In this document: in pieces, positions 4,027 through 64,000 of the stretch
How positions within the stretch are numbered: the stretch's first letter is position 1
Layout: the number at the start of each line of letters is the position of its first letter
IMG/VR virus record: IMGVR_UViG_3300021400_000042
Strand: one strand, 5' to 3'
From: a virus
DNA: 64,000 nucleotides
Made by a program: the position numbers and the translations under genes
The notes under the pieces: generated by a model
What the model was told of the DNA's origin: nothing
The model's input: only the letters and a program-made list of their open reading frames with translations
Database searches by the model: none

Positions 4027-5097
4027 ATGCCTGGTATTTTTGATAACAAACTTTTCAATGCAGAGGTATTCCAGAAGTACGTTGATCGTATCCCGAACCT
4101 CAACAGAAACGAGCTGATTCGCTCTCGTGCGGTACGTCCGAGACCGGATCTTGCTGCAGCTATGGCCGATCAGGTGGGCGGCAACTATCTGACCACTCCG
4201 CTGTATGGCCTCATCAATGGCGCTGAAGTCCAGAACTATGACGGTAACACTGACATCGATTCCAATGAGACTGTGACCTTCAGTCACTCCCGTGTCGTTG
4301 TCGGCCGTGCGCAGTCCTGGGTTGAGCGTGATTTCAGTTACGATATCACCGGAGGCGTTGACTTCCTGGAGAACGTGGCACAGCAGATCGCTGAATACTG
4401 GGAGGAAGTCGATCAGGCTACGATCGTTCACATCCTGAACGGTGTGTTTGCTATGACCGATACCGAAGGTAAGAAGTTCGTCGATGGCCATACCCTGGAC
4501 ATCACTGCGAAGGAGAACAGTGAGGGTGTTACCGGTGTAATGGACGGAACTACTCTGAATATCGCTATGCAGCAGGCCTGCGGTGATAACAAGGGTAAGT
4601 TCTCCCTGGCTATCATGCATTCCTTTGTCGCGACGAACCTTGAAAACCTGAGACTTCTGGCCTATCTGAAGTACACGGACGCTTCCGGTATGCAGCGTGA
4701 CCTTGCTATCGGTACGCTGAACGGCAGAACCGTCCTCGTGGACGATAACATGCCGGTCAAGACTACCGGAACCGGTGCGGAAGCAAAGACCACCTATACC
4801 ACCTATGTTCTGGGTGACGGCGCTATCGAGTACACCGATTGCGGCGCAAAGGTCCCGTATGAGACTGACCGTGATCCGGCCAAGAACGGCGGCCAGGATA
4901 CCCTGTATTCCCGTCAGAGAAAGTGCTTTGCTCCGTATGGTATTTCCTTCACGAAGAAGAGCATGACTTCTCTGTCCCCGACTGATGCGGAACTGGAAAA
5001 GGGTCAGAACTGGGAGCTGGTAAACAGCACCGGAGACACCAAACAGTATATCGCTCACAAGGCTATCCCGATTGCACGTATCATTTCCCTGGGCTGA
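4027..5097 (+). CDS. Major capsid protein
   Basis: 356-aa ORF after the scaffold gene with a strong RBS (AAAGGAGA). Canonical position and size. Confidence 0.8.
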   Translation: MPGIFDNKLFNAEVFQKYVDRIPNLNRNELIRSRAVRPRPDLAAAMADQVGGNYLTTPLYGLINGAEVQNYDGNTDIDSNETVTFSHSRVVVGRAQSWVERDFSYDITGGVDFLENVAQQIAEYWEEVDQATIVHILNGVFAMTDTEGKKFVDGHTLDITAKENSEGVTGVMDGTTLNIAMQQACGDNKGKFSLAIMHSFVATNLENLRLLAYLKYTDASGMQRDLAIGTLNGRTVLVDDNMPVKTTGTGAEAKTTYTTYVLGDGAIEYTDCGAKVPYETDRDPAKNGGQDTLYSRQRKCFAPYGISFTKKSMTSLSPTDAELEKGQNWELVNSTGDTKQYIAHKAIPIARIISLG

Positions 5098-5136
5098 TTG
5101 TCCAGGGATTTCTGCTGAAGACGGGAGGTGCTACAC

Positions 5137-5520
5137 ATGATGTACCTGACATACGAAGAGTACAAAGGATACGGCGGGGATCTCCCGGAAACGGATTTCA
5201 TTCTGTTTGAGCATAGGGCAAGAAAGCGGATTGACTACTGGACAGACTGCCGTGTTCAGAACATGGCAGCAGTGCCGGAAGCAGTCAAGCTGTGCATGAT
5301 GCAGATTATTAAGCTGGACGGAAAATTCGGTGTGGACGCGCAAACGGATAATCCGGTTGTCGCGTCCTTCAATACTGACGGATATTCGGAAAGCTACGGA
5401 AGTGCATCTGACCAGGCGGCGGCTGCAGAGGCGAGTCTGTATAAAACCGTGAGAAGCCTGTTATACGGCGAAAAGGATGACTACGGTACACCGTTACTTT
5501 ACCGGGGGGTGTACGGATGA
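5137..5520 (+). CDS. Head-tail connector (gp6-like)
   Basis: ATG at 5137 is preferred because the GTG at 5128 overlaps the GGGAGG RBS. Position after the capsid gene. Confidence 0.55.
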   Translation: MMYLTYEEYKGYGGDLPETDFILFEHRARKRIDYWTDCRVQNMAAVPEAVKLCMMQIIKLDGKFGVDAQTDNPVVASFNTDGYSESYGSASDQAAAAEASLYKTVRSLLYGEKDDYGTPLLYRGVYG

Positions 5521-8434: not shown

Positions 8435-11400
8435 ATGGCTGGAAAGAGCGACGGCTCTATAACGATTGATACAAAACTGGATAATAGCGGTTTTTCCAGA
8501 GGATCGGATGAGCTGAAGCACGCCGTCAAGTCCCTGACAGATCAGGTGAACGAGACTGGAAGTAAGATCCAGAATGCGTTCAAGTTTGATTTTGGGCAGC
8601 CCAAACAGGCTGTCAATTCATTCTCACGAGCAATTAAGCAGGTCAATGATGAAATTCAGAGTCTTGGAGAGCTTGGACAGAGAGCGCTGGAAGGTGATGC
8701 GGATGCACTGGCACGGTTCCGGTCTGAAAGCGGGGAAACCCTGAGTAAGCTGGAAGAAATGAAGGCTGAACTGGAAAAGTTCGGCAGTACGGAATTCATG
8801 ACACCGGAATACGCGAAAGCTGCGGACCAGTACCAGAAAGCAGCTACACAGGTGGATGAACTGGCAAAGTCCCTGGAAAATGCAGAAGCCGCCTTTGAAC
8901 AGCTGACAAATGATTTTGGCAGCTCCGAAGAATATACGGCACTGGAAGACCGGATAGATGTCCTGAAGATGTATCAGAAGGAATACGAAGCTGCTATGAA
9001 GCGCGGTGACAGCGGCGCGGCAGCACAGGCCTTCATGAATTCAGGTGTGGGAAAAGGGACGATTGCGGATGCGGTAAAAGAAGCAGAAGCAGAAATGCAG
9101 AAGCTCTGGGATAAGTTTGAAAACTCCACTCCGTACAGATCAGCTCAGAAAGAGATTGATAAGATCACGGCAAAACTGGAACAGGCGAAAGCACAGGCTG
9201 AACAGTATAAAGCCGAAATGGACGCGACTCCGGCAACGTTTGAAGGGTATGCGTCTACAGAGTATGAAAGAGATCAGGCCGCACTGGAAAGAACGATTGA
9301 CCGGCTCCTGGAATACAGGCAGCTTGTCAGAGAAGGCGTAGGAAGCGACACAGCACCGTCGGCAGAATGGCAGGCGGTACAGGAACGTTGGCAAAACATG
9401 ACTACCATGAGCGGTCTTATCCGTAATGCCTTTACCAGTCTTTTCAGCACGATTACAAGCGGAGCGCGTACCGTAGGAAGCGCACTCAGCACGGGTATTA
9501 CTCATCCGATTCAGCTTGTAGATCGTGCGCTTGGCGGCGTTGCTGTGGGTGCATGGAAAGCAGTTTCTTCCCTTGGAAGGCTTGCCGGCAATGCGATTGT
9601 AAGCGGCATTCAGAGGATAGCGAGTGCCGCGAGACAGGCAGCCGTACACCTGGCGGGAATGGCGAAAAGTGCCATCACGAACGGTCTGAAGAAGCTGGGT
9701 AACGCGATTGCCAATGTCGGAAAGAAATCAAAGAGTACAAACGTTTCTCTTTCCGGCGGATTTAAAACTATGTTGAAGTACGGACTGGGTATTCGTTCCA
9801 TGTTCGTACTTTTTAATAAATTGAGAAATGCAATCAAAGAGGGATTCGGCGCACTGGCAGAACAGGATGCAGCGTTCGGTCAGACCGTGAATAACTTCAA
9901 AGCAGCTCTCACAAACCTGAAAATGAGTTTTGCAGCGGCATTCGCTCCGATTGCAGAGACGGTATTGCCCATACTGACAAACCTCATCAATACACTGGCA
10001 ACAGCAATATCGAAAATAGGTCAGCTTGTGGCGGCGCTGTCGGGGAAAACGACCTATAAAAGAGCGATCACTTCTCAGGCGGCTATGGCCGATAACACTT
10101 CAAACGCGGCAGACGCGATGAAGGATGAATCGAAGGCCGCAAAGGAAGCACAGAAAACACTGGCCGGTTTTGATGACGTGGAAATCCTTCATGATAATTC
10201 GTCAAATCTGGATCAGGGACAGACAGCCGGGAACGGTGGCGGTGGTGGTTTTGAAGAACTGCCGATTGACAGTAAATTCGCGGACCTTGCAAAGAAGCTC
10301 AAAGACATGTGGAAGAATGCAGATTTCACAGAGCTTGGCCGGATGCTTGGACAAGGGTTAAAAGATGCCCTGGATAAGATCCCGTGGGATTACATCAAAC
10401 AGGTAGCGGCGAAACTGGGAAAGAGCATAGCTACACTGTTCAACGGCTTTCTGGAAGTGCCGGGACTGTTTACGACGATTGGAAAGACAATCGGAGAAGG
10501 TATCAATACGATATTTGAATTCCTGGATGCGTTCGCCTCTAACTTCCATTGGGCAAGTCTCGGACAGGCTATCAAAGATGCGATCCTCGGAATGCTCAAT
10601 ACGATTGACTGGCCGCTGATTTATCACACCATGGCAACATTCGGTGAGGGTATCGGGACAGCGCTTGAAACAGCACTGAATAATCCGGAGATATGGACAG
10701 CCATATTCACGGCAGTCAGTAACGGCTTGAATTCGATTGTGTACGGTATTGATGCATTTCTGAAAGCAGTGAACTGGGGTGAGCTTGGCGCGAACATTGG
10801 AACCGGCCTGAATGCCGGCGTAGAGGCCTTTGATTGGAGCGCACTGTCACAGACGTTGATAGATCTGATAAACGGCGCATTCGATCTGTGGTACAACTTT
10901 GTGACCACATTCGATTTTTATAAATTCGGGTCTCATATTGGTACAGCCCTGTCCGATGCAGTAAAGGGTATCAACTGGACTGAGGGCGGTGCAAGCGTCG
11001 CACAGACGATTAACGGCCTGTTTGAAGCTCTGAATGGGTTTATACAGTCTACAGACTGGAAAGCCCTTGGAGCGGCGGTTATCGATGCCATAGGCGGCTT
11101 TTTCGGTGAGATTGACTGGGGAACCATGGCGGAAACGCTGTCCAGTGCGGCGATAGGCCTGTTGGATGCCCTCACAGGTGCATTTCAGGAAGTTGACTGG
11201 AAAGCGCTGCCCGGACAGATTACAGAGGCAATTAAGACGTTCCTGACAGAATTTGACTGGGCGGGAGTCGCAACGGCAGCAGGTGAACTGATCGGAGCGG
11301 CATTCACAGCACTGATTGAAGTCGGCGGGGAACTGTGGGAGTCCATGAAATCTGTCGGTAAGAACATCATGGAAGGAGGTTTTCAGGGTATTATAGATGC

Positions 11401-13315
11401 CCTGGCAAGTGTCGGTGAATGGATAAAGACAAACATCTTCGATCCGTTCATTACCGGGTTTAAGACCGCGTTTGGTATTGAATCACCTTCTACGGAGATG
11501 ATGCCGCTTGGCGGTTACATCATCGCAGGTATGCTGCAGGGTATTATCGACGGCCTTGTAAATATCGGGACCTGGATCAAAACAAATATCGTGGATCCGT
11601 TCGTATCCGGCGTGAAGAGTATGTTCGGTCTGGACGGTGAGGAGTCCGTTCTGGTAAGCGTCGGTAAAGACCTGATTGCCGGCCTGAAAGCCGGTATCGG
11701 GGCAGTCATGACCGGTATCAGCGATTGGATCAAAACTGTTATCGTGGATCCGTTTGTATCCGGTGTGAAAAGCATGTTCGGTCTGGATGGTGAAGAATCC
11801 GTGCTTGTCAGTGTTGGTAAAAACCTTCTGGAAGGTCTGAAGAACGGTCTGCTTGGAGCAATGGACGGTATCGGTGATTGGATCGGTACGAATATTACCG
11901 GCCCTATCTGCGGATTCTTTAAGGACCTGTTCGGAATTGCCAGCCCGTCAACTGTATTCTCTGAATACGGTGGTTTCCTGCTTGCCGGTCTGAAAAACGG
12001 TCTGCTTGCGGCAATGGATGGTATCGGTGATTGGATTAGCACAAACGTAACCGGCCCCATCTGCGGATTTTTCAAAGATTTGTTCGGTATTAACAGCCCG
12101 TCAACCGTGTTCAATGAATACGGCGGATACCTTATGCAAGGTCTGGAAGGCGGTATTGACGAGAATAAAGAGCTTCCGAAAACAGCTCTGTCAAATGCTC
12201 AGACTTCCATGGAAACGGTATTCAGCGCACAGAAACAACTGCTTGCATGGGCGCAGGTCGGTAGCAACGTGATGTCCCTCGGATTAAGAGCAGGTATCCT
12301 GCTGAAGACACCGGCTGTCCTGGCCACAATCACTAAGCTGGAAGACGATATGCGAAAGGTCATCACAAAACAGTTCAATACCTGGAAAACAGCGGCGGGA
12401 ACACTGCTTGACAATTTTAAGAACGGATTGACCGGGAAACAGGCAACACTGATAACAACAGTCAATACGATTATTACTGCACTGAAGACAAAAATTGATA
12501 GCTTCAAATCTCAGCTGAATAATTCCGGACGTGATCTGATGACGGATCTGCAGAATGGGATGAACAGCATGAGCGGCAGCATCTCTTCTTCAGCAAGTAA
12601 TATAGCAACCGGAATACATAACAGCTTCAATAACCAGAACTGGAATAATCTTGGGTACAACATCGGGATGGGTATTTATAACGGTCTGGTATCTTCCGGA
12701 AGCTGGCTGTCTACGCTTGCATGGAATACAGCTGTAAACATGTACAATTCGGCTTGTCGCGCCTTGGGGATTGCATCACCTTCCAAAGAATTTGCATGGA
12801 TTGGTGAAATGATTACCAGAGGTCTGGGCGGCGGAATTGAGGCTACACAGGACAATGCGGTGAGTGCGGTCACATCCCTGGCGGATGCCGTGACGCAGGA
12901 AGCAGAAGACAGCAATCCGATTATGCACATCGATACGGCCGTGAATGGGATAGACAGTGTGCTTTCCACATTCTCTGACAAGGTAGTACAGAGCTTTGAT
13001 GCGATGATCTCTGCAATGGAGAGTATTGTAAATGGCTCTTCTCTCACACTGCCTGCAATGGCAAACGGCTCTGTAATGCCGTATTCTGCCCGTAGGAGCG
13101 CTTCGCAGGATGAGGGGGATAAACTATCGTCCCTCATCGAAACACTGGCACAGCGGGACGCTGACAGGCTCACACGGGATGATCTGAGTGAAGTCCTTAT
13201 CAATGTACTCAGGCAGTATTTGAACATTGATTTTTACATCGGTGATGAACAAATTGCAAGACACGCGAACGCGGGAAACGCAAAACTGAATCGCCGGTAC
13301 AGTACAGCAACATAA
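8435..13315 (+). CDS. Tape measure protein (1626 aa)
   Basis: Very long ORF after the chaperones, with coiled-coil and Gly/Ala-rich repeats. Confidence 0.9.
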   Translation: MAGKSDGSITIDTKLDNSGFSRGSDELKHAVKSLTDQVNETGSKIQNAFKFDFGQPKQAVNSFSRAIKQVNDEIQSLGELGQRALEGDADALARFRSESGETLSKLEEMKAELEKFGSTEFMTPEYAKAADQYQKAATQVDELAKSLENAEAAFEQLTNDFGSSEEYTALEDRIDVLKMYQKEYEAAMKRGDSGAAAQAFMNSGVGKGTIADAVKEAEAEMQKLWDKFENSTPYRSAQKEIDKITAKLEQAKAQAEQYKAEMDATPATFEGYASTEYERDQAALERTIDRLLEYRQLVREGVGSDTAPSAEWQAVQERWQNMTTMSGLIRNAFTSLFSTITSGARTVGSALSTGITHPIQLVDRALGGVAVGAWKAVSSLGRLAGNAIVSGIQRIASAARQAAVHLAGMAKSAITNGLKKLGNAIANVGKKSKSTNVSLSGGFKTMLKYGLGIRSMFVLFNKLRNAIKEGFGALAEQDAAFGQTVNNFKAALTNLKMSFAAAFAPIAETVLPILTNLINTLATAISKIGQLVAALSGKTTYKRAITSQAAMADNTSNAADAMKDESKAAKEAQKTLAGFDDVEILHDNSSNLDQGQTAGNGGGGGFEELPIDSKFADLAKKLKDMWKNADFTELGRMLGQGLKDALDKIPWDYIKQVAAKLGKSIATLFNGFLEVPGLFTTIGKTIGEGINTIFEFLDAFASNFHWASLGQAIKDAILGMLNTIDWPLIYHTMATFGEGIGTALETALNNPEIWTAIFTAVSNGLNSIVYGIDAFLKAVNWGELGANIGTGLNAGVEAFDWSALSQTLIDLINGAFDLWYNFVTTFDFYKFGSHIGTALSDAVKGINWTEGGASVAQTINGLFEALNGFIQSTDWKALGAAVIDAIGGFFGEIDWGTMAETLSSAAIGLLDALTGAFQEVDWKALPGQITEAIKTFLTEFDWAGVATAAGELIGAAFTALIEVGGELWESMKSVGKNIMEGGFQGIIDALASVGEWIKTNIFDPFITGFKTAFGIESPSTEMMPLGGYIIAGMLQGIIDGLVNIGTWIKTNIVDPFVSGVKSMFGLDGEESVLVSVGKDLIAGLKAGIGAVMTGISDWIKTVIVDPFVSGVKSMFGLDGEESVLVSVGKNLLEGLKNGLLGAMDGIGDWIGTNITGPICGFFKDLFGIASPSTVFSEYGGFLLAGLKNGLLAAMDGIGDWISTNVTGPICGFFKDLFGINSPSTVFNEYGGYLMQGLEGGIDENKELPKTALSNAQTSMETVFSAQKQLLAWAQVGSNVMSLGLRAGILLKTPAVLATITKLEDDMRKVITKQFNTWKTAAGTLLDNFKNGLTGKQATLITTVNTIITALKTKIDSFKSQLNNSGRDLMTDLQNGMNSMSGSISSSASNIATGIHNSFNNQNWNNLGYNIGMGIYNGLVSSGSWLSTLAWNTAVNMYNSACRALGIASPSKEFAWIGEMITRGLGGGIEATQDNAVSAVTSLADAVTQEAEDSNPIMHIDTAVNGIDSVLSTFSDKVVQSFDAMISAMESIVNGSSLTLPAMANGSVMPYSARRSASQDEGDKLSSLIETLAQRDADRLTRDDLSEVLINVLRQYLNIDFYIGDEQIARHANAGNAKLNRRYSTAT
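11410..12150 (+). repeat. About five diverged ~50-aa tandem repeats inside the tape measure
   Basis: Repeated peptides W-I-K/G-T-N-I-x-D/G-P-F/I...FG(L/I)...(e.g. DPFVSGVKSMFGLDGEESVLVSVGK twice, GPICGFFKDLFGI.SPSTVF.EYGG twice). Confidence 0.8.
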
Positions 13316-13327
13316 GGAGGCAGGCGA

Positions 13328-13699
13328 ATGGCGTTCAAAAATCCTTTTAAGGTTGACGGGGTGGTTTTACCCACCCCGGATGAATATAAGCCGGGAATTG
13401 AAGATCTGTCTTCTGAAGCAACCGGCAGAACTCTGGACGGTATCATGCACAAGGACGTTGTTTCCACAAAGGACTATTACGAGTTTGTGTGGAAGGTCGT
13501 TTCATGGGCGGATGCCGCAAAGATATTCAATGCAGTGGACGGAAAGACGCAGGTGACACTTACCTATGCGGATCCCCGGACACCAAACAGATTTCTGACC
13601 AACACATTCTATGTCGGAAAACGGAGTTGTTCGGCTTTGAATCTGAATGATCCGGTTCGTACCTGGAAGGACGTATCTCTGACATTCACAAGAATTTAA
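13328..13699 (+). CDS. Tail component (hypothetical, 123 aa)
   Basis: AGGAGG RBS. Position after the tape measure gene. Confidence 0.5.
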   Translation: MAFKNPFKVDGVVLPTPDEYKPGIEDLSSEATGRTLDGIMHKDVVSTKDYYEFVWKVVSWADAAKIFNAVDGKTQVTLTYADPRTPNRFLTNTFYVGKRSCSALNLNDPVRTWKDVSLTFTRI

Positions 13700-13712
13700 G
13701 GAGGTCGCACAG

Positions 13713-15932
13713 GTGATAAATCTTTCAAGAGCTTTCCGGCAGGAGCTTTTTTACAACAGAAGAAATTATCTCACCTATGCGGATATTACTCTGTCAACCG
13801 GAAGAACATTGTCCCTGACCAATACACAGATATGGTCCGGTGGTTTTTCAACAGAGGATGCCGTATCGGAGGATAATTCTTTTACGGCCCTCGGTTCAAC
13901 AATCATGGGAGCGGCAACGCTGGTCATAAACAATATGACAGAGGCCTATTCCAATTATGATTTCACCAATGCAAAGGTTGTCCTTTATGTGGGTATGACC
14001 TTCAAAGTCAATGGATCCACCCGGACAGAGAAAATCAAAAAGGGAACCTATACCGTTGATGAAACGAGCTATAACGGTGGTACAATCACGCTCTCCCTGC
14101 TGGATTACATGGAGCAGTTTGACCGGCCGTACAGCAACAGTACATTGAGCTATCCTAATACTTTGGATGCCATTGTCAGGGATGCCTGTAATAAATGCGG
14201 TGTATCCCTGAATACCTATACTTTCCCGCATAGAGATTATGTGGTTCAAAATAGACCGGAGGATGAAGCAATCACCTTCCGGGAGGTCATCGGCTGGGCG
14301 GCCTGTATCGCCGGGTGCTTTGCCAGATGCAATGTTGATGGAAAACTGGAACTGAAATGGTTCGATCAGACTACACTGGAAAGCCGCACAAATGTCATTG
14401 ACGGTGGCAGGTCCTTCAGTTCTTCCGGAACGCTGATTGATGGCGGCGGGTTTGATACTGATTATGATGTTATCGACGGCGGCAATCTGGCAGACGATGA
14501 CGGGATGCATTATGTCCATTCTCTGTATTCTCAGGATATCAGTGTAGACGATGTGGTCATTACTGGGGTCCATATTACGGTTAAAGATGAGACAGAAGAA
14601 GGGAAGTCTTCTACAAAGGAATTCAATTCCGGGCGAAAGGGTTATGTAATTGGGATTGAAAACAATGATTTCATTACACCTGAAACCGGACAGGAGGTTG
14701 CGAACTGGTTAGGGGAGCAGCTGATTGGTCTGACCTTCCGGAAGGCTTCCGTTACACATGCCAGTGATCCTTCCATGGAGGCCGGTGATATCGGGATCCT
14801 GTGGGACAGGAAAGACAATGAATATCCTGTCCTGATTACCCGGACAAACTTCTCTGCTACTGCTTCACAGAAAACGGTAAGCGGGGCGGAAACGCCTTCA
14901 CGAAACAGTGCTACACGGTACGGGTGGCAGACAAAAAGCTATGTGGAGTCCAGGAAGCTGCTGAAGAAGGAACAGACTACCAGAGAAGCCATGCTGAAAG
15001 ATCTTGCCGATAAACTGGCAGCTCATTCCGGTCTGTATTCTACGGTTGAAACACAGTCGGACGGCAGCAGCATTTTCTACCTTCACGATATGCCTACTTT
15101 GAATGAGTCCGCGATTGTCTGGAAAATGACAAAAGAGGCCTGGGGCGTAACGACGAATTACAACAAGGGTAAAAATACAGTATGGAACGGCGGCATGACC
15201 GTTGACGGTGATACTATCGTTCGTATTCTTACAGCTGTCGGCGTGGACGCGGACTGGATCAATACCGGAAAGATACAGTCAAAAGACGGGTCTGTATCAA
15301 TCGATCTGGACAAGAACACGATCAACCTGAAGGGTATCACTTCCTTTGATGGGTTTGAGACAAAGGACAATCTGAAGACTGCCGGCAAAACCACGATCAA
15401 CGGCGCGAATATCACAACCGGGTCCATAAAGGACGCAAACAGTAACACGGTATTCAATCTGTCAACCGGTTCCCTGACAATGAAGAAAGGAAGCATTGAA
15501 CTGGGAACTCGATTTAAAGTAGACAGTAATGGTTATCTTACGGCTGAATCAGTTGACCTTAAAGGCCATTTTCGGAGTGTTTCAGGAAGTACCTTTACAG
15601 AAATATATAATGGTCAATTCCGCGCCGGTACTACCAATGGTAGCTACGATACTTTGCACGGTGTTATTGATGCAGATGCAAACTATAGCGGCGGAACACA
15701 TGCCGTTTCAGTAATTGCAAAAACGGGTTTTTTGGTCCTTGGAGGAAATGGGACAATCTGGTTTACAGATCAAACCGGATCCGGAAATGCATGGGGCTGG
15801 GCAAACAGTAATGGTCTGCATTCAAAAGGTGGATTAAGCGTAAGCAGTATTGCCATTCCTACCGCTTTTGATAGCGAAGGCAAAGCGGTAAGTTGGTATA
15901 CCGGATACATAGATGACGGCATTATCAAATAG
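13713..15932 (+). CDS. Tail tip / tail-associated protein (Tal or endopeptidase-tail-like)
   Basis: 739-aa ORF with a GTG start and AGGAGG RBS, in the baseplate position. Confidence 0.6.
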   Translation: MINLSRAFRQELFYNRRNYLTYADITLSTGRTLSLTNTQIWSGGFSTEDAVSEDNSFTALGSTIMGAATLVINNMTEAYSNYDFTNAKVVLYVGMTFKVNGSTRTEKIKKGTYTVDETSYNGGTITLSLLDYMEQFDRPYSNSTLSYPNTLDAIVRDACNKCGVSLNTYTFPHRDYVVQNRPEDEAITFREVIGWAACIAGCFARCNVDGKLELKWFDQTTLESRTNVIDGGRSFSSSGTLIDGGGFDTDYDVIDGGNLADDDGMHYVHSLYSQDISVDDVVITGVHITVKDETEEGKSSTKEFNSGRKGYVIGIENNDFITPETGQEVANWLGEQLIGLTFRKASVTHASDPSMEAGDIGILWDRKDNEYPVLITRTNFSATASQKTVSGAETPSRNSATRYGWQTKSYVESRKLLKKEQTTREAMLKDLADKLAAHSGLYSTVETQSDGSSIFYLHDMPTLNESAIVWKMTKEAWGVTTNYNKGKNTVWNGGMTVDGDTIVRILTAVGVDADWINTGKIQSKDGSVSIDLDKNTINLKGITSFDGFETKDNLKTAGKTTINGANITTGSIKDANSNTVFNLSTGSLTMKKGSIELGTRFKVDSNGYLTAESVDLKGHFRSVSGSTFTEIYNGQFRAGTTNGSYDTLHGVIDADANYSGGTHAVSVIAKTGFLVLGGNGTIWFTDQTGSGNAWGWANSNGLHSKGGLSVSSIAIPTAFDSEGKAVSWYTGYIDDGIIK

Positions 15933-38965: not shown

Positions 38966-39280
38966 TTATAGAAAACAGGGAGGGGGTGAACAGCTTTTAT
39001 GAATTCGGTGACTATCTTCCGTTTCGGATCTTTCGGATATGTGTCAACAGGAAAAGTATTACTGAGACTATGGCTTTTCGTTGGCATGATATCGCCGGAG
39101 ACAGTGAAAAGCTGGCATCCTATTTAGATTAAGCCCATGTAATGAAGAGCTTCTCGTTTAATAACCCAAAGATCCGAACGATGGTGAGTATTACATGGGC
39201 GCATAAAGCTCAACATGTGAATCGATAGTGCGTGTCTCCTGGCAGTGGAAATACAGGAATCACGACACGCACTCTTTTAT

Positions 39281-39376
39281 CGGAACGTGGACAAGAGGTC
39301 AAAGTCGCAGAGCTGAAAGAGAGATTGATCTGACAAAGGAAGCTCAGAGACGCAGGTTCAAATCCTGCCGTTCCGA
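39281..39376 (+). ncRNA. tRNA-like element 2
   Basis: Acceptor CGGAACG/CGTTCCG, D-arm GAC-AAGAGGTCAAA-GTC, T-arm GCAGG-TTCAAAT-CCTGC. About 45 nt in the anticodon-arm region, with no 7-nt anticodon loop. Confidence 0.55.
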
Positions 39377-39534
39377 AGCGGGGTGGAGAACAAATTATCC
39401 GCGCACCCAGTGACAAGTAGCGATAACACTTGTGAAGTAGGGGGACTAAAGTACACGGCCTCTTGAAAAACAGGTGGCGAAAACGTCAGGCCAACCTTGC
39501 GGGATGAGTGGTTTCGGTTACCTGAACCGACCAT

Positions 39535-57473: not shown

Positions 57474-57667
57474 TTATGTGCGTGAGGATCTGTGAGTGTT
57501 CGCGGTGCGGACGGAAAAGGCGGTGCCGGAATTGTAGTTGGATAGGGGCAGCCCTGGCACAGATGACAAAACACGGCGCGGACATCACAGCATCCGTAAT
57601 GTGCAGGACAGGTGACGGTGTGCAATGGTGTCCGGGCTTCATACAAAGGGGAGGTAAGCAGAATTGA
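57470..57667 (+). CDS. Cys-rich basic protein (65 aa)
   Basis: Contains CECSRCGRKRRCRNC. Confidence 0.4.
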   Translation: MIMCVRICECSRCGRKRRCRNCSWIGAALAQMTKHGADITASVMCRTGDGVQWCPGFIQRGGKQN

Positions 57668-58068
57668 CCATCAAAGAGTTATCACAGCTCTATTACCTTA
57701 ACCGGGAAATAGAGGACTGTCAGAAGAAACTGGAAGAACTGGAATCACAGAGAGGTGTCAGCGCGGTCATGATCGATGATATGCCGCACGGTAAGGGACC
57801 GGCGAAAAGCAGGGTTGAACAGCTGGCACTGGAAATTGTGGATCTGAAAGCAATCATACATGCAAAGCAGATCGAATGTATCCATGAGCGGAACCGTTTA
57901 GAACGGTACATAGCAGAGATACCGGATTCATTGACACGTCAGATCTTTGAATACCGTTTTGCAAATTGCCTTCCTTGGCATCAGGTAGCATTGCACATCG
58001 GTGGTGACAATACAGCGGACAGCGTGAGAATGGCCTGTAAGAGATACCTTGAAAAAGTGGCAGGCTGA
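57664..58068 (+). CDS. Sigma-70 region-4-like late regulator (ArpU/RinA/DUF1492-like)
   Basis: TTG start. C-terminal HTH (RQIFEYRFANCLPWHQVALHIG). Positioned upstream of the packaging genes. Confidence 0.55.
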   Translation: MTIKELSQLYYLNREIEDCQKKLEELESQRGVSAVMIDDMPHGKGPAKSRVEQLALEIVDLKAIIHAKQIECIHERNRLERYIAEIPDSLTRQIFEYRFANCLPWHQVALHIGGDNTADSVRMACKRYLEKVAG

Positions 58069-58257: not shown

Positions 58258-58878
58258 ATGTCATATAGACAGCAGCGGGACTATGAGAACCTGAATAAAG
58301 CGATATTCGATGGAGTGGGTGAGTATGACATTCCGGTCATCGAACCAGACAGTCCGCAGGTTGATAACTGGATCAGTTTCAACTATGCGAAAGGGTGCGA
58401 GGAACCGGAGATACACGGCATCCACTTTTTCATTGACGATTATCAGTTTGTCCGTGTCTGGAAGCAGCCGGATGTTTACCTGGATATGCTGAGAAAGTTT
58501 CAGGCAGTATGCACGCCTGACTTTTCCACGTATACAGACTTTCCGAAGACGATACAGCTGTATAACCACTATCGGAAGCACTGGTTAGGTGCGTACTGGC
58601 AGATGAACGGGATCCGGGTGATACCTACCATCAGCTGGGCGGATCGGGACAGCTACGAATGGTGTTTTACCGGTGAGCCGGAAGGCTACACGGTCGCGGT
58701 CAGTAGCGTTGGAACGCAGGGCAGTCAGGAGACACGACAGTTATTTCTGGACGGATATCGGGAAATGATGACCAGGCTGCAGCCGCAGAGGATCATCATG
58801 TATGGCAACGTACCGGATGAATGCCAGGGAAATATTATTCCCGTCAAAGCGTTTCAGCAGAAATGGAGGAATGGCTAA
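58258..58878 (+). CDS. DUF4417-like protein
   Basis: ATG at 58258 after a GGAGGTG RBS. Motif HFFIDDYQF. Confidence 0.5.
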   Translation: MSYRQQRDYENLNKAIFDGVGEYDIPVIEPDSPQVDNWISFNYAKGCEEPEIHGIHFFIDDYQFVRVWKQPDVYLDMLRKFQAVCTPDFSTYTDFPKTIQLYNHYRKHWLGAYWQMNGIRVIPTISWADRDSYEWCFTGEPEGYTVAVSSVGTQGSQETRQLFLDGYREMMTRLQPQRIIMYGNVPDECQGNIIPVKAFQQKWRNG

Positions 58879-59492
58879 TGGGCGGTCGTGGGGCAAGTTT
58901 TACCACAGCCAGAGAAATAGTCGGACAGTATGAGTTGACGGATATAACCGACAGTAAATCAAAGATTGTCAGTTTCTTCCGTGACATTGATAAGAACGGC
59001 GGTATTCGAGTTGATGAAGAGGCCGGAAAGATCAAAGTCACGAAGTCAGCAATGCAGAAGGCACGGGATCTGGCAGATGAGCTTTCTGAAAGAATGGTCG
59101 AAAGGGATGAACAATCCCTGAGAGATTACAGAGATATCCGTCAGATAATGAATGGTGAGTATTCGATCAGCGATCAGGACCGCAGTAACATTCCTGATTT
59201 CAATGCTTATGTCCGGTCGAGTGAGAATTTCATAAAGATCCGGCGCAATGGTATGAGCATTGACACAGCATATCAGGAACTTGCGTCCATGTATCCATAT
59301 TACTTTGATGCAGACCGGGTAACCAATCCTGCGGATCAGCTGCAGGACATTAACCGTGTCCTGGCAGATCTGAAGAACAGCACGCGACAGATACCGCGTG
59401 AATACCGGCAGGAAGCGGCGGATGACTTGCGAACTACCATTATCCGGGGTTATATCGCACTGCAGTACAGGAAGGGGCGCAGGACGGCATGA
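58878..59492 (+). CDS. MGGRG-N-terminus protein 1 (204 aa, no recognised domain)
   Basis: TAATG overlap with the upstream gene. Starts MGGRGASF. Confidence 0.55.
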   Translation: MGGRGASFTTAREIVGQYELTDITDSKSKIVSFFRDIDKNGGIRVDEEAGKIKVTKSAMQKARDLADELSERMVERDEQSLRDYRDIRQIMNGEYSISDQDRSNIPDFNAYVRSSENFIKIRRNGMSIDTAYQELASMYPYYFDADRVTNPADQLQDINRVLADLKNSTRQIPREYRQEAADDLRTTIIRGYIALQYRKGRRTA

Positions 59493-59623
59493 CGGAGAAA
59501 AGCAAGACTGATATCAGCAAGGCAGTCGAAACGGTGATGAGAAAATGCGGTGTAACTATTCCTGACAGGATAAAAGAGTATACCGTAGAAGAGGAAGATG
59601 ACAAAACGGTTGAAAAAAGTTGA
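59489..59623 (+). CDS. Small acidic peptide (44 aa)
   Basis: ATGA overlap with the upstream gene. Below the ORF-track cutoff. Confidence 0.35.
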   Translation: MTEKSKTDISKAVETVMRKCGVTIPDRIKEYTVEEEDDKTVEKS

Positions 59624-59646
59624 CTGTTTACACAGGAGGTGCTATC

Positions 59647-60300
59647 ATGGGAGGTAGAGGAAGTGGAAGCGGATTAAAACAAAGCGACGGCCCTCGTGGA
59701 GGTGGCGGCGGTGATACAAAATGGAATCAGCCGAATACGCCACAAATGCGGCCGCCGGCCCCGAATATCAGAGGGGTCATAGGCGCGAAAGGCAAGCCTA
59801 TATCCGCCACACAAGCAGTTAAAAGCATCAATCCTTTCAGAGATGCTGAGTATGGCGATTACAGCGAGAATTGCCAGCGTTGCGTTGTTGCTTTTGAGCT
59901 GAATCGAAGAGGTTACAAAGTAGAGGCAGAAGCGACGTGGGAGAATGATACATACCCGCGTGGAAACCATTGGCTGTCCGCATTTAAAGGCGGAAAGCTG
60001 GAAGATGTTGGCGCTCGTAACACAGCGGCGATCAATAAAAACATTCTTTCAAAAATGGGATCTTGGGGTGAAGGTTCCAGGGCTATTGTCAAAGTACAGT
60101 ATCCCGGAGGCAATTCAGGGCATGTATTCAATGTTGAATACCATCGGGGAAAACTTTATTATTACGACGCTCAAACCGGCGTTTCGTATAAAAACCGAAC
60201 GGTGTTTGACCATGTTGTAAAGGGTAACGTCCAAATCGTTAGAAGCGATAATCTTGATATTGCCGATAATGTTAGGGATATGGTGAGAAAGCGCAGGTAA
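59647..60300 (+). CDS. MGGRG-N-terminus protein 2 with a papain-fold (Tox-PL1/glutamine-deamidase-like) domain
   Basis: Starts MGGRGSGS after an AGGAGG RBS. Candidate catalytic residues: Cys in ENCQRCVVAFEL, His in SGHVFNVEY, and YYYDAQTG. Confidence 0.55.
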   Translation: MGGRGSGSGLKQSDGPRGGGGGDTKWNQPNTPQMRPPAPNIRGVIGAKGKPISATQAVKSINPFRDAEYGDYSENCQRCVVAFELNRRGYKVEAEATWENDTYPRGNHWLSAFKGGKLEDVGARNTAAINKNILSKMGSWGEGSRAIVKVQYPGGNSGHVFNVEYHRGKLYYYDAQTGVSYKNRTVFDHVVKGNVQIVRSDNLDIADNVRDMVRKRR

Positions 60301-60322
60301 GGTAACCAGTTAGGAGGCAAAC

Positions 60323-60553
60323 ATGGGGACTAAAGAAGCTATCGAAAAAGCCAAAAAATTAAATCCAAATTATAACAAGTGTGTTGAGCATTCAAACGCG
60401 TGGGCATTTAGCCGTGACGATGATGAAGAACGCGTCGGAGGGCCGGATGCAGGTATCGTTATCATGAAAGATGACGGGCGCGTGCTTAGAATGTACGAGT
60501 ATTACATGACAGATCTTGGTGAGAGTGAAATCATAAGCGAACAGAAGATCTGA
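60323..60553 (+). CDS. Small acidic protein (76 aa), immunity-position gene
   Basis: Immediately downstream of the toxin-like gene, with an AGGAGG RBS. Confidence 0.45.
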   Translation: MGTKEAIEKAKKLNPNYNKCVEHSNAWAFSRDDDEERVGGPDAGIVIMKDDGRVLRMYEYYMTDLGESEIISEQKI

Positions 60554-60569
60554 CACAGAAAGGCGTAAA

Positions 60570-61154
60570 ATGGGCGGTAGAGGCGGTTCATTCACCAGTG
60601 TTGGTGAAAGCATCGCATACAGAAACGCCTTAAATGCAGCGGAAAACGGGATAAAGCGTGATAGGGTTGAAACAGCTATCCTTCTGGACAAAGACGGGAA
60701 TACCATTTTCACCGAGTCACAGGGCAGTGCTGATTCGGTACAATTCTCACCGGATCAGTTCAATCAAATGAAGGACGGCACGCTCACGCACAATCATCCG
60801 AGTGGATCAACCTTCAGTTGGCAAGATCTTGACTTGCTGGTGCGAAGTGGATTGAAAGAGATCCGCGCCACATCTGCAAACAGGACGTATCGAATGATAG
60901 ACCTTGGAGGATCCTTCTCTGGAAAAGGAAATTTTCCACAGGATTTCTTTAACGCTTATCAGGCCAACAAAGCTGTATGCGATGCGAAATATCAGAAGAT
61001 CGAAAACAATTACAATTCAGGAGCCATATCATACAATGAGTATGCTGACCAGTGTTCAAACCTCAATAAAGAGCTGAACATGATGAACAGTAAATGGTTA
61101 AGGTCAAATGCTCGATTGTATGGATACAGGTATGAAATGATCGGGAGGAACTGA
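60570..61154 (+). CDS. MGGRG-N-terminus protein 3 with a JAB/RadC-like motif
   Basis: Starts MGGRGGSF. Contains THNHPSGSTFSWQDL, resembling HNHPSG...S..D of RadC/JAMM. Confidence 0.5.
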   Translation: MGGRGGSFTSVGESIAYRNALNAAENGIKRDRVETAILLDKDGNTIFTESQGSADSVQFSPDQFNQMKDGTLTHNHPSGSTFSWQDLDLLVRSGLKEIRATSANRTYRMIDLGGSFSGKGNFPQDFFNAYQANKAVCDAKYQKIENNYNSGAISYNEYADQCSNLNKELNMMNSKWLRSNARLYGYRYEMIGRN

Positions 61155-61155
61155 T

Positions 61156-61314
61156 ATGCCTAAAACAAAAGACGGCGGATATTTATTACATGAACCGGAT
61201 GCAGCGGCCGGCCCGTATGCTCCGAAGGCAAAAGAAGAGGAAAAGAAGTCCGGAAAGGGTAAAAAACCCGGAACGGTGAAGAGATCAGGAAACAAGCGAA
61301 CAGGAAAGAAGTAA
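61156..61314 (+). CDS. Small Lys-rich peptide (52 aa)
   Basis: Starts 2 nt after the upstream stop. Below the ORF-track cutoff. Confidence 0.3.
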   Translation: MPKTKDGGYLLHEPDAAAGPYAPKAKEEEKKSGKGKKPGTVKRSGNKRTGKK

Positions 61315-61374
61315 AACCCTCTACCACATACGGCGGAGGGTTTCTTTATGCCCTGAGAAAGTGAGGTATGCCGT

Positions 61375-61902
61375 ATGGCGTTCGCAAAGGGGAATCAGTA
61401 CGGCAAAAAGCCGAAGTATAAGACACCCGAAGAAATACAGGAAAAAATAGATGCATACTTTGAGGAGTGTAAAGGTACACTCCTTGAAGATCATAACGGA
61501 GATCCGATCATTGACAGGTGGGGCAATCCGGTATATCTGGACAGGAAGCCGCCCACGGTCACGGGGCTGGCGCTTGCCCTGGGATTTAAAACGCGCCGCG
61601 CCTTAATGCTCTATCAGGCAAAGAAAGAGTTCATGGACGTGATACTGGAAGCGAAGTCCCGGATAGAGATGTACAACGAAGAACAGCTCTTTTCCCGCGA
61701 CGGGTCCAGAGGCGCACAGTTCTCTCTGCAGCATAACTTCCAGGGGTGGCAGGAAGAGAAGGAAGACGATAAGAAAGGTGCAGCGGTCAATATCATCAAT
61801 GATATTCCGAAGGGGACTGTCACGGTGAACACGGACACGGCGGTGTTCAATGCATTGCAGAAGCCGGAGGATGAAGCTACACAGGATGCCGGCGAAGAGT
61901 AA
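61375..61902 (+). CDS. Terminase small subunit
   Basis: Contains PPTVTGLALALGFKTRRALMLY (HTH typical of gp3/Terminase_4-type TerS). Upstream of TerL. Confidence 0.75.
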   Translation: MAFAKGNQYGKKPKYKTPEEIQEKIDAYFEECKGTLLEDHNGDPIIDRWGNPVYLDRKPPTVTGLALALGFKTRRALMLYQAKKEFMDVILEAKSRIEMYNEEQLFSRDGSRGAQFSLQHNFQGWQEEKEDDKKGAAVNIINDIPKGTVTVNTDTAVFNALQKPEDEATQDAGEE

Positions 61903-63145
61903 CCTTTCCGGGGTTCGTCTCACAGACCTGATAGCCCCGGCGTTCTATCCCGTGTACTGGGACGTAAGAGAGGGGAACCATACATATTACGATCTGTACG
62001 GCGGTCGAGGATCCACAAAATCATCCTTTATCAGTCTGGACCTGGTAATGGGTATCATGGAGGATCCGGCAGCGAATGCAGCTGTCTTCCGTAAAGTGGC
62101 AAGCACTATCGGGACATCTGTATTTGAACAGGTTTTGTGGGCGATCAATGCGTTAGGTGTGGAAGAACTGTGGAAGACCACAACCAATCCATACAAGGCC
62201 ACGTATAAACCGACGGGGCAGGTTATATTATTCCGAGGCCTGGATAAAGCCAAAAAGCTGAAGTCCATCAAAGTATCACGCGGATATCTGAAATATCTGT
62301 GGTTTGAAGAACTTGACGAGTTTTCAGGCGAAGAAGAGATCCGATCTGTACAGCAGTCAGTCCTCCGAGGCGGCCCGAAATACGTTGTATTCAAGTCCTT
62401 CAACCCGCCGATCAGTAAATCAAACTGGGCGAATAAATACGTCCTGAAGCCGCACAGAGGCGCGTACAGGCACAAATCCTGTTATCTGGATGTGCCGCGT
62501 GACTGGTTAGGACAGCAGTTCTTTGATGATGCGGAAGATCTGAAGAACACGAATTATCGTGCCTATCAGCATGAGTACCTGGGGGATGCCGTCGGAACTG
62601 GCGGTGAAGTCTTTGACAACCTGGAAATCAGGGCAATCACTGACGCGGAGATTGCGAGTTTTGCCAATATTTACATGGGTATTGACTGGGGCTGGTTCCC
62701 GGATCCGTACCACTGGGGCAAAATGAACTATGATGCAGCCCGTAGGACCTTATACATCTACGATGAAATGCGGTGCTGGAAGACATCGAATGCAGAGACC
62801 TGGAACCGGCTTGTTATGCAGCACGGCGTAACGAGTCAGGATCTTATCACTGCGGATTCTGCGGAAAAGAAATCTGTCGGAGACTATCGTGATTATGGCT
62901 CTCTGTGCCGGCCGGCAATCAAAGGTCCGGACAGTGTGCGGTATGGTATGAAATGGCTGCAGTCTTTAGTAAAGATTGTCATTGATCCGTACCGATGCCC
63001 GTATACGGCGCAGGAGTTTACAGAGTATGAGTATGAACGGACAGACGATGATGAGATAATCAGCAGCTATCCGGATGCAAATAACCATAGCATTGATATG
63101 ACCAGATATGCTATGGAACGCGTATATAAGCGCAAAGGCCAGTAA
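61886..63145 (+). CDS. Terminase large subunit (PBSX-type)
   Basis: Walker A motif YGGRGSTKS. About 420 aa. The start overlaps the TerS end. Confidence 0.85.
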   Translation: MPAKSNLSGVRLTDLIAPAFYPVYWDVREGNHTYYDLYGGRGSTKSSFISLDLVMGIMEDPAANAAVFRKVASTIGTSVFEQVLWAINALGVEELWKTTTNPYKATYKPTGQVILFRGLDKAKKLKSIKVSRGYLKYLWFEELDEFSGEEEIRSVQQSVLRGGPKYVVFKSFNPPISKSNWANKYVLKPHRGAYRHKSCYLDVPRDWLGQQFFDDAEDLKNTNYRAYQHEYLGDAVGTGGEVFDNLEIRAITDAEIASFANIYMGIDWGWFPDPYHWGKMNYDAARRTLYIYDEMRCWKTSNAETWNRLVMQHGVTSQDLITADSAEKKSVGDYRDYGSLCRPAIKGPDSVRYGMKWLQSLVKIVIDPYRCPYTAQEFTEYEYERTDDDEIISSYPDANNHSIDMTRYAMERVYKRKGQ

Positions 63146-63235: not shown

Positions 63236-63318
63236 GGGTGAGTGTGCCGAGAGGCGAAGGCAGCGGACTGTAAATCCGTGACAGAGAAACACCGGTGGTT
63301 CGATTCCACCTTCACCCA
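63236..63318 (+). tRNA. tRNA-Tyr (GTA), type II with a long variable arm
   Basis: Acceptor GGGTGAG/TTCACCC, anticodon arm GCGGA-CTGTAAA-TCCGT, T-arm GGTGG-TTCGATT-CCACC. Collinear with E. coli tRNA-Tyr. Confidence 0.8.
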
Positions 63319-63462
63319 CGATGCCCTCCGAGGTCTGCGGACCGGCGGTGAAAGCTCATTCTTTTTGGAGATTATGAGAAAGGCTACACAGTAAAAAGAG
63401 TTTTACTTTTCCCGTCGTTGTGGTAGAATCTTTTTATCACAATATGAGGGAGGCGTTTATAG

Positions 63463-63689
63463 TGGCAAACTATGTAACGATCACGTCAGATAAGAGCAAA
63501 AAGACAGCTTATCTGATTTGCCTCTTTACCGGAATGTTCGGCGGTCATTACTATTACGTCGGGCGAACGATGAGAGGATTACTTGCAACATTCACTTTGA
63601 ATTTTGCATTCATCGGTTGGATTCTGGATCTCCGGAAGATCCGGAAAGGAAAATTCAAAGACAATGTTGGTCAATATTTGAGGCAGTGA
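63463..63689 (+). CDS. TM2-domain membrane protein
   Basis: GTG at 63463 after a GAGGGAGG RBS. Contains FTGMFGGHYYYVGR...GWILD, the TM2 pattern. Confidence 0.6.
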
Positions 63690-63754: not shown

Positions 63755-64000
63755 TTGAATATCTTCACGGGCCTTATGGCAAAAATACGGGAGGTGTTAA
63801 GACGATTGATCCCATATAGAAACATAGAGCAGGTGGAGAATATCGAAACTCCCCTGTCAACAGATATGACGAACGCCCTTGACCTGTGGTACAAGCTGTA
63901 TCTGAATCAGGCGTACTGGTTAGGCGGCGAAGCGAATGTGAAATCTTTGAACCTTCCGGCTTTTATCAGTTCCGAGATTGCACGTCAGATTGTGCTTGAA
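63755..64000 (+). CDS. Portal protein, N-terminal part (runs off the 3' window edge)
   Basis: TTG start after a GAGGTGAGG RBS. Open for 82 codons to the window end. Contains LDLWYKLYLNQAYWLGG...SLNLPAFISSEIARQIV, typical of SPP1 gp6-like portals. Confidence 0.65.
   Translation, partial: MNIFTGLMAKIREVLRRLIPYRNIEQVENIETPLSTDMTNALDLWYKLYLNQAYWLGGEANVKSLNLPAFISSEIARQIVLE

Follow-up and report, generated by a model that had tools for sequence, protein, structure and literature searches.

We analysed the genes at the right-hand end of a 64,000-nucleotide (nt) stretch of viral DNA, IMG/VR record IMGVR_UViG_3300021400_000042 (the window), where three consecutive open reading frames (ORFs) begin with the same short peptide, MGGRG, called here the tag. 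The window, about 64 kb long, represents an entire phage genome that is circularly permuted, with the portal gene split between its two ends (1-743 and 63755-64000), and related metagenomic contigs are 63.9 and 64.7 kb long. The right-end genes follow in the order of a regulator, a gene for a DUF4417 protein, the three tagged ORFs (proteins 1, 2 and 3), each with a small ORF, the terminase small subunit gene terS and the terminase large subunit gene TerL. A preliminary description of this DNA had reported the shared start at 58878, 59647 and 60570, directly upstream of the terminase genes, and this was confirmed.

The three ORFs start with ATG GGC GGT CGT GGG GCA AGT TTT at 58878, where the ATG overlaps the TAA of the DUF4417 gene (TAATG), with ATG GGA GGT AGA GGA AGT GGA AGC at 59647, with AGGAGG 8 nt upstream, and with ATG GGC GGT AGA GGC GGT TCA TTC at 60570; each is preceded by a ribosome-binding site. 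Since the codons differ at wobble positions and at the Arg residue (CGT vs AGA), the similarity lies at the protein level, as had been proposed. Past the tag the bodies are indeed unrelated (BLASTP without the first nine residues, best E = 1), and the small ORFs of 44, 76 and 52 amino acids (aa) are present, all of them preceded by a plausible ribosome-binding site. The six-frame translation of the window contains GGRG ten times, and just three of these directly follow a start codon. One of the other occurrences is the Walker A loop of TerL (61997-62020); it reads GGRGSTKS, and GGRGS(T/I/G)KS is found in all terminase types accompanying tagged genes. The likeness of the loop to the tag, GGRG(S/A)(S/G)S, is probably coincidence, and a functional link between them was rejected because the loop is buried in the ATPase fold.

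The tag recurs among the homologues of each protein, at identities as low as about 30-35%. MGGRG starts 22 of 34 protein 1 homologues and 30 of 32 protein 3 homologues, the latter down to 30% identity, while in the protein 2 family it starts 53 of 120 among the matches listed (best 120 of 188), with about 30 more reading LQFF-GGRG. Three unrelated families retain the tag in homologues as distant as about 30-45% identity, and, kept there with different codons, it is on this sequence evidence under selection at the protein level. The short form GGRGxSF stands on proteins 1 and 3, the canonical GGRGSGSGL on protein 2. It is flexible: in the AlphaFold2 (AF2) model of protein 3, residues 1-11 are disordered before a confident fold, and in protein 2 a Gly/Pro-rich linker follows the tag.

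A wider set of tagged proteins was collected from IMG/VR contigs with DNA encoding LQFFGGRG (at least 120), together with contigs around homologues of the three proteins and around DUF4417. It holds at least 209 unique tagged proteins of 80-275 aa in at least 30 unrelated body clusters, from phages of Clostridia and Streptococcus. Although the search pattern also permitted GSRG, GGKG and GSKG, GGRG is invariant in all of them, and with clusters equally weighted the consensus reads G-G-R-G-[G/A/S]-S-S-G-[L/I/M/F]-[S/G]. The first hydrophobic residue stands at position 9 in 133 of these proteins and at position 7 in 33. As had been anticipated for related phages, MGGRG-initiated ORFs were found near the terminase genes, usually after a DUF4417 gene and before terS. 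They come in arrays of one to four, and bodies are swapped in close relatives at the same positions (a 102-aa protein in contig L003, a 220-aa protein in L001; L-numbers denote the viral loci or contigs compared). Identified body families include Tox-PL1, two ADP-ribosyltransferase clusters (PF03496, E = 1e-24 and 2e-16) and an HExxH zinc protease cluster (phrog_7153). Cultured carriers are the S. pyogenes phages A25 and Str01, many Javan streptococcal prophages and Dorea phage DO134P1. In A25 (L129) the deposited start of gp23 (5001-5411) lies 10 codons too late, the true ORF beginning with MGGRGASSGM, and in Javan115 (L333) the deposited start of Javan115_0029 (2501-2911) lies about 45 codons too late, so that MGGRGASSGM was missed. 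In a 596-Gb genome collection the LQFFGGRG DNA pattern gave mostly chance matches in unrelated taxa and about five true N-terminal leader-tag genes (Thermoclostridium, Acetatifactor and others). A full-text literature search with the strings MGGRG and LQFFG returned no relevant match, and we found no prior description of the tag as a portable N-terminal element or of DUF4417 as its partner gene.

The linkage to DUF4417 is close in both directions. Of 80 viral contigs chosen solely for encoding a relative of DUF4417, 76 show a tagged gene as its immediate downstream neighbour, and two more (L182 and L188) have only a long form of protein 3 in which the tag is internal. Conversely, DUF4417 lies on the same strand in 73 of 99 contigs chosen solely by the leader-tag pattern (among the matches listed, with enough upstream sequence), and in 51 of these 99 it is immediately upstream, with stop and start abutting or overlapping. 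The layout of DUF4417, tagged gene and terS is also found in the cultured phages A25, Str01 and Javan115; in the last, Javan115_0028 (L333 1854-2531), annotated as 'DNA modification methylase', is a DUF4417 homologue (43% identity, E = 2e-52). DUF4417 is sometimes fused to a ParB-type N-terminal (NTPase) domain. Sequence and profile searches of DUF4417 against PDB gave nothing meaningful. In the window the mechanical ORF of this gene begins at GTG 58132, and the gene of relatives encodes 206 aa.

A second route to the same N-terminus was found in the relatives. A leader of the form M(x)2-12 N-[LI]-Q-[FLYW]-F directly precedes GGRG in about 30 protein 2 homologues (among the matches listed) and in two homologues of protein 1. 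The same leader extends the N-terminus of ribosomal protein L27 in Firmicutes, is also present on the 80alpha capsid and scaffold proteins and is cut by the host cysteine protease Prp (PMC9405229, PMC5744158), for which the motif is MLxx(D/N)LQ(F/L)F'A(S/H)KK with the cut after the second Phe (PMC9405229). The three window proteins are without the leader and start directly with M-GGRG, while many homologues have it (MIKLNLQFFGGRGSGS and MGFDLNLQYFGGRGARY are examples); the start alternates within single families between M-GGRG and (N/D)LQ(F/Y/W)F-GGRG, and both types are mixed in single arrays (L048, L043 and L072). Since the initiator Met is normally cleaved off before Gly, and Prp would cut after LQFF, both gene forms would yield a mature G-G-R-G N-terminus. 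Met removal and Prp cleavage of the tagged proteins are predictions here, and the convergence of the two routes is the strongest sign that the exposed peptide itself would be the object of selection. Like L27 and the 80alpha capsid and scaffold proteins (PMC9405229, PMC5744158), many tagged homologues carry M-x-x-(N/D)-L-Q-F-F exactly before the position of the predicted cut; unlike in those substrates, the residue after the cut is Gly instead of Ala, and the conserved element sits on the retained side. At the position of the major tail protein, contigs L017 (reverse strand, about 13378-13905) and L114 (reverse strand, about 10895-11443) encode a protein of 175-182 aa with the leader MKTNLQFF'AEDR. 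As this is a canonical NLQFF'A leader in the same phages, these hosts evidently process phage proteins in this way, and Prp-type processing may extend to their tail proteins.

Protein 1 had been described as having no recognised domain. It has none in Pfam, and its AF2 model (predicted local distance difference test score, pLDDT, 90.9) gave no PDB match better than E = 0.6; yet its body proved to recur as a module in MuF-type proteins and in giant polyvalent ones. When 1.8 billion representative proteins were searched with its profile, 1077 matched, and in them the domain is free-standing, C-terminal in Phage_min_cap2 proteins (P0211, P0219; P-numbers denote relatives of protein 1) and in Phage_Mu_F proteins (P0210, P0218, P0226), or internal to giant proteins (93, of 1,000-3,700 aa), among which one has a RadC-like JAB domain as well. 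P0211 and P0219 belong to the minor capsid protein 2 family, which the window gene at 740-1888 represents, and in P0203 a single polypeptide holds both the protein 1 domain and one of protein 3 type. Of the relatives of up to 300 aa, 11 of 35 have GGRG before the protein 1 domain, against none of 115 longer ones, which is the pattern expected if the tag replaces covalent attachment to a carrier. In another lineage (P0196, P0203, P0206-P0209, P0212 and P0214) the motif (K)FNPYHDxxGRF and a Gly/Ser/Thr-rich stretch stand before each module, at the N-terminus of single-module proteins and between the modules of multi-module ones, each chain of which has two to three copies; the motif may serve as a cleavage site or as an alternative kind of address. 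The string NPYHD had no match in a literature full-text search.

The papain fold reminiscent of Tox-PL1 that had been suggested for protein 2 was borne out by a match to PF15644 (Gln_amidase; 54.6 bits vs a cut-off of 24.1, E = 2.9e-14, aa 75-178). C76, H159 and Q176 are invariant in 25 sequences, including a fusion to MuF in Acutalibacter phage Fontainebleau, and all 120 among the matches listed (of 188 homologues) are annotated PF15644. In Fontainebleau the domain forms the C-terminus of a MuF-type minor head protein of 632 aa (E = 3e-23), and in actinophages it lies within genes annotated 'capsid maturation protease' or 'MuF-like' minor capsid protein, some of which fuse both. Because of these actinophage genes, protein 2 may act as a peptidase rather than a glutamine deamidase. 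Neither the Fontainebleau Tox-PL1 junction nor those of the longer protein 1 relatives have GGRG; in these sequences the tag belongs to the unfused forms. Fontainebleau has neither DUF4417 nor a tagged gene before terS, a single case of the fused type.

For protein 3, the RadC/JAMM-like character that had been noted is probable from motif and fold and found no support from a Pfam profile: no Pfam family was matched at E up to 1, nor any NCBIfam or PDB sequence, and NCBIfam gave no match for any other part of the cassette. E34, H74, H76, S83 and D86 are invariant in 24 sequences (E...HxH...SxxD), with six residues between the second His and the Ser vs seven in the JAMM motif E...H-x-H-x(7)-S-x(2)-D. 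The fold of its AF2 model (pLDDT 91.7) matched in BFVD uncharacterised phage proteins (E = 5e-14), 'minor capsid proteins' of 485-633 aa (E = 1e-9 to 1e-4) and RadC, MPN and metalloprotease entries (E = 3e-3 to 9e-3), and in PDB, at no significant level, dCMP deaminases (E = 0.05), Rpn11 (E = 0.1) and the archaeal JAB protein AF2198 (E = 0.3). By its model and motif protein 3 is probably, though not provably, JAB/RadC-like. Long-form homologues of 255-359 aa (phrog_5057), found in L163, L166, L168, L175, L176, L182, L148 and L165 as the last gene before terS, begin with a domain of about 75 aa, immediately followed by an internal GGRG(S/G)(S/G)SG(M/L), for example GGRGSSSGMGF. This domain had no Pfam match; its size and the Gly-Gly that follows resemble, as an unproven analogy, a ubiquitin-like pro-domain.

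The small ORFs occupy the places where immunity or chaperone genes had been expected. They are conserved and co-vary with the upstream gene, which agrees with that proposal, but only the 76-aa ORF is weakly immunity- or inhibitor-like. The 44-aa family follows 5 of 8 unique protein 1 family genes and is called as a gene in relatives, the 76-aa family follows 12 of 17 unique Tox-PL1 family genes, and the 52-aa ORF is conserved after protein 3 homologues. Members of the 76-aa family gave recurrent sub-threshold matches to Imm-NTF2-2 (E = 0.018-0.14) and one to PepSY, and the small ORF after the Fontainebleau Tox-PL1 fusion is unrelated to the 76-aa ORF of the window. Many partner ORFs, that at 61156-61314 included, have 45-70 aa, of which a short N-terminal part is conserved and the tail is basic and rich in Lys, Ala and Pro (...KKKPAPAKKKPAAKGKKK, for instance); such Lys-rich ORFs look less like immunity proteins than like DNA-binding tails. 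A small partner ORF is missing for many tagged proteins of 80-160 aa.

Table 1. Features of the tagged cassette, its neighbours and the minor capsid protein 2 gene in the window.
Feature	Position	Strand	Remarks
Late-type regulator	57664-58068		phrog_36
DUF4417 gene	58258-58878	+	PF14386, E = 3.8e-58; likely start ATG 58258
Tagged protein 1	58878-59492	+	204 aa; MGGRGASF
Tag of protein 1	58881-58901	+	GGRGASF; short variant, hydrophobic residue at position 7
44-aa small ORF	59489-59623	+	acidic, pI 5.0; partner of protein 1 family
Tagged protein 2	59647-60300	+	217 aa; MGGRGSGSGL, Gly/Pro-rich linker, Tox-PL1 papain-fold domain (aa 75-178)
Tag of protein 2	59650-59676	+	GGRGSGSGL; canonical length, hydrophobic residue at position 9
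76-aa small ORF	60323-60553	+	acidic, pI 4.8; candidate inhibitor/immunity partner of Tox-PL1 protein
Tagged protein 3	60570-61154	+	194 aa; MGGRGGSF, probable JAB/RadC-like domain, helical hairpin
Tag of protein 3	60573-60593	+	GGRGGSF
52-aa small ORF	61156-61314	+	Lys-rich, basic, pI 10.1; partner of protein 3 family
Stem-loop, then CUUUAU	61314-61345	+	-20.3 kcal/mol, z = -2.15; between cassette and terS
terS, terminase small subunit	61375-61902	+	GP3_package PF16677, E = 4.8e-15; phrog_606; downstream boundary of slot
TerL, terminase large subunit	61850-63145	+	
Minor capsid protein 2, MuF-like	740-1888	+	382 aa; without effector extension

The coordinates are collected in Table 1. The stem-loop before terS is possibly a weak terminator or attenuator that separates the cassette from the packaging genes; a simple terminator scan gave no match to it. 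The minor capsid protein 2 of the window has an N-terminal sequence identical to that of the 382-aa genes of L001-L004 annotated PF06152, and is a candidate carrier or docking partner. Directly 3' of it, at 1900-2355, lies a 151-aa gene whose product has the same N-terminus as that of an L001 gene annotated PF21825 (Sequestin), and the relative L004 has a Tad2-like gene at the equivalent position; this looks like a second polymorphic accessory slot within the head module. The rest of the window holds head, tail, lysis, recombinase and replication modules. Two tRNA genes are present, Leu (aag) at 39280-39377 and Tyr (gta) at 63236-63319, the latter between TerL and a TM2-domain gene (63420-63689). 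Positions 56-64 kb had no match to INPHARED phages by megablast.

We give about an even chance to the reading, drawn from these sequence comparisons, that the three proteins are free-standing effector modules that are packaged in the head of the phage with the tag as address. The three genes would then encode cargo made as separate polypeptides, the functional counterparts of C-terminal MuF toxin domains and of polyvalent modules. The flexible peptide of 7-10 residues, GGRG-[GAS]-S-S-G-[LIMF] or in its short form GGRG-x-S-F, would have to be at or very near a free N-terminus, exposed in this phage by removal of the initiator Met and in many relatives by host Prp cutting M-x-x-N-L-Q-F-F'GGRG. 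Once exposed it would be a common address that replaces covalent fusion to a MuF or minor capsid protein 2 carrier, most likely by docking the cargo to an adaptor or a conserved component of the head while the procapsid assembles or DNA is being packaged, and the enzymes would thereby enter the next host along with the DNA. Candidate cargo would include the papain-fold peptidase or deamidase, the JAB-like metallopeptidase, ADP-ribosyltransferases and the zinc peptidase. The co-translated DUF4417 protein would be the best candidate for an adaptor or processing factor, and the cognate small ORFs might serve as inhibitors or escorts, holding the larger cargos in an inactive or soluble state or accompanying them in some other way. 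Virion location, injection and docking partner of the tagged proteins are all putative.

The studies of MuF toxins (Jamet et al. 2017, PMC5576092; as far as its passages on effectors and packaging go) and of polyvalent proteins (Iyer et al. 2017, PMC5512222) provide the framework for tagged effectors. The analogy to MuF toxins made in the preliminary description is strongly supported, all three bodies being fused elsewhere to MuF or minor capsid protein 2 proteins, small proteins of the head interior. Further likenesses to the MuF toxins, as those passages present them (PMC5576092), are the occurrence in temperate phages of Firmicutes, the ADP-ribosyltransferases and peptidases as effectors, the small ORF downstream and the polymorphism between related phages. 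The same passages describe covalent MuF fusions only, whereas the three window proteins are without a MuF (PF04233) or minor-capsid domain and stand alone at 194-217 aa with a tag of about nine residues; their genes lie between DUF4417 and terS rather than after the portal gene, with up to four per phage. The protein 1 domain also links the cassette to polyvalent proteins, since in its 93 giant proteins it stands beside RadC-like JAB and ART-PolyVal domains, and solo versions of polyvalent-protein domains occur near phage structural genes (PMC5512222). Polyvalent proteins have two to fifteen effector domains, while each window protein is a single globular domain, a solo version; the paper on them (PMC5512222) contains no tag, no DUF4417 and no Tox-PL1, and its text is without the word 'glycine'.

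Short terminal peptides common to unrelated cargo proteins are known from other systems, with no sequence similarity to the tag. The capsid-targeting sequence of T4 internal proteins takes unrelated cargos into an HK97-type shell and is removed by the prohead protease, and the cargo-loading peptides of encapsulins, which also lead into an HK97-type shell, are like the tag Gly/Ser-rich with a hydrophobic anchor and are usually C-terminal, whereas the tag is N-terminal. The resemblance to the T4 sequence that had been pointed out holds as an analogy only: the tag is on the retained side of the sole cleavage that the sequences suggest and would be kept on the mature protein, not removed. A prohead protease gene was not recognisable in the head module of the window.

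Several observations weigh against head packaging of the three proteins. The suggestion that the tag is a packaging or processing signal, which gained unexpected support from its alternation with the Prp leader, finds none in the virion proteome of Str01 (PMC6195288): the 12 proteins listed there, including the contaminants holin, amidase and terS, comprise neither the tagged STR01_54 (APZ81907) nor DUF4417. This negative is weak evidence, because the cut-offs were stringent and many known structural proteins were missed (PMC6195288). The cassette lies upstream of terS and not after the portal gene, where MuF toxins are located. Since the hairpin at 61314-61345 separates it from terS, its late expression is an assumption, and the virion placement of the tagged proteins is likewise one that we infer. 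A tagged gene is also present in some phages whose MuF is long, which means that the tag does not simply stand in for fusion. Some homologues have mere degenerate Gly/Arg-rich N-termini, such as MAKGGRGGKRGGGG or MGSRG, and the long form of protein 3 carries the tag internally, after the 75-aa domain; either this domain is cleaved off, or a free N-terminus is not strictly required.

The tag could instead be a handle for DUF4417 as an enzyme or chaperone, with the modules acting in the infected or producing cell, in anti-defence or host takeover, and never being packaged. We consider this unlikely. It would account for the near-obligate linkage in both directions, with stop and start abutting or overlapping as in the TAATG of the window, and it agrees with the frequent fusion of DUF4417 to the ParB-type NTPase domain, with the tagged protein and DUF4417 both being undetected in Str01 virions (PMC6195288), and with the one fused-type phage examined, which is without both DUF4417 and tagged genes. 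It offers no explanation, however, for the fusion of these bodies to MuF or minor capsid protein 2 elsewhere or for the lack of the tag in the longer protein 1 homologues, and about a quarter of the tagged loci have no DUF4417 in the available sequence (among the matches listed). It is also compatible with the cargo model, in which DUF4417 could be the loader. One version of such loading is, in our judgement, rather doubtful: GGRG-x-S-S-G-[hydrophobic] and DUF4417 would be two halves of a modular head-loading system of Firmicutes phages, with DUF4417 as the loader or ligase. DUF4417 would use the free N-terminal Gly-Gly, exposed by Met removal or by host Prp, in a manner like a sortase nucleophile, and attach the cargo, covalently or non-covalently, to the MuF/portal complex or to the packaged DNA.

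The toxin-type bodies (Tox-PL1, ADP-ribosyltransferase and peptidases), the cognate small ORFs downstream and the swapping of cassettes in close relatives would also be consistent with ordinary prophage toxin-antitoxin or toxin-immunity cassettes serving addiction, abortive infection or competition after lysis, with GGRG as the relic of an ancestral leader exon. A relic would not be expected to stay invariant in all of at least 209 proteins while the bodies diverge to about 30% identity and the codons vary, nor to persist through two exposure routes and vanish from every longer protein 1 form. Moreover, the many tagged proteins of 80-160 aa without a partner ORF, and the Lys-rich basic partners, unlike immunity proteins, fit such cassettes poorly, and we regard this explanation as improbable.

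JAB enzymes cut at or after the Gly-Gly of ubiquitin-like proteins, and the GG of the tag might be a processing site of this kind for the JAB-like protein 3 or another peptidase, the 75-aa domain being a released ubiquitin-like domain or pro-domain. The long form of protein 3, where this domain ends directly before or with the GG and is followed by the JAB-like domain, and the frequency of peptidase domains (JAB-like and papain-fold) among the cargos, point in this direction. Against this, proteins that start with M-GGRG have the Met alone before the GG and nothing to release, JAB-like genes are found in a minority of tagged arrays and in none of phage A25, and the 75-aa domain is without a detectable family, so that this explanation appears very improbable. 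That the element acts as nucleic acid, as a G-rich translation-initiation enhancer or a DNA-packaging-related site, would suit its purine- and G-rich sequence at the start codon and its place adjoining terS, near which pac sites usually lie, but is effectively refuted by the differing wobble and Arg (CGT vs AGA) codons and by the retention of the motif when it is shifted 6-13 codons (leader forms) or about 75 codons (long forms) from the start. Two further candidates were rejected: a double-glycine bacteriocin leader, because nothing precedes the GG in the M-type proteins, and an N-degron, because Gly is to our knowledge not a bacterial N-degron.

In conclusion, phage-delivered polymorphic effectors are already known, and what is new is the N-terminal tag and the DUF4417 partner gene. 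Such effectors are known mainly as covalent fusions (MuF toxins and polyvalent proteins) or from a few model phages (the internal proteins and Alt of T4, and Dar of P1). The comparison also puts right the starts of genes in deposited genomes, as A25 and Javan115 have their tagged genes annotated too short. If the three proteins are head cargo addressed by the tag, phages of the gut and of streptococci would hold many so far hidden candidates for injected or anti-defence proteins, forming a large class recognisable by sequence alone. DUF4417, a common phage domain, would gain a testable role, the tagged proteins would form a new class of likely substrates of Prp, which is pursued as an antibiotic target, and the tag would offer a simple means to load foreign proteins into phage capsids. 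If DUF4417 is the loader or ligase, injected effectors could be swapped as gene cassettes without rebuilding a structural protein.

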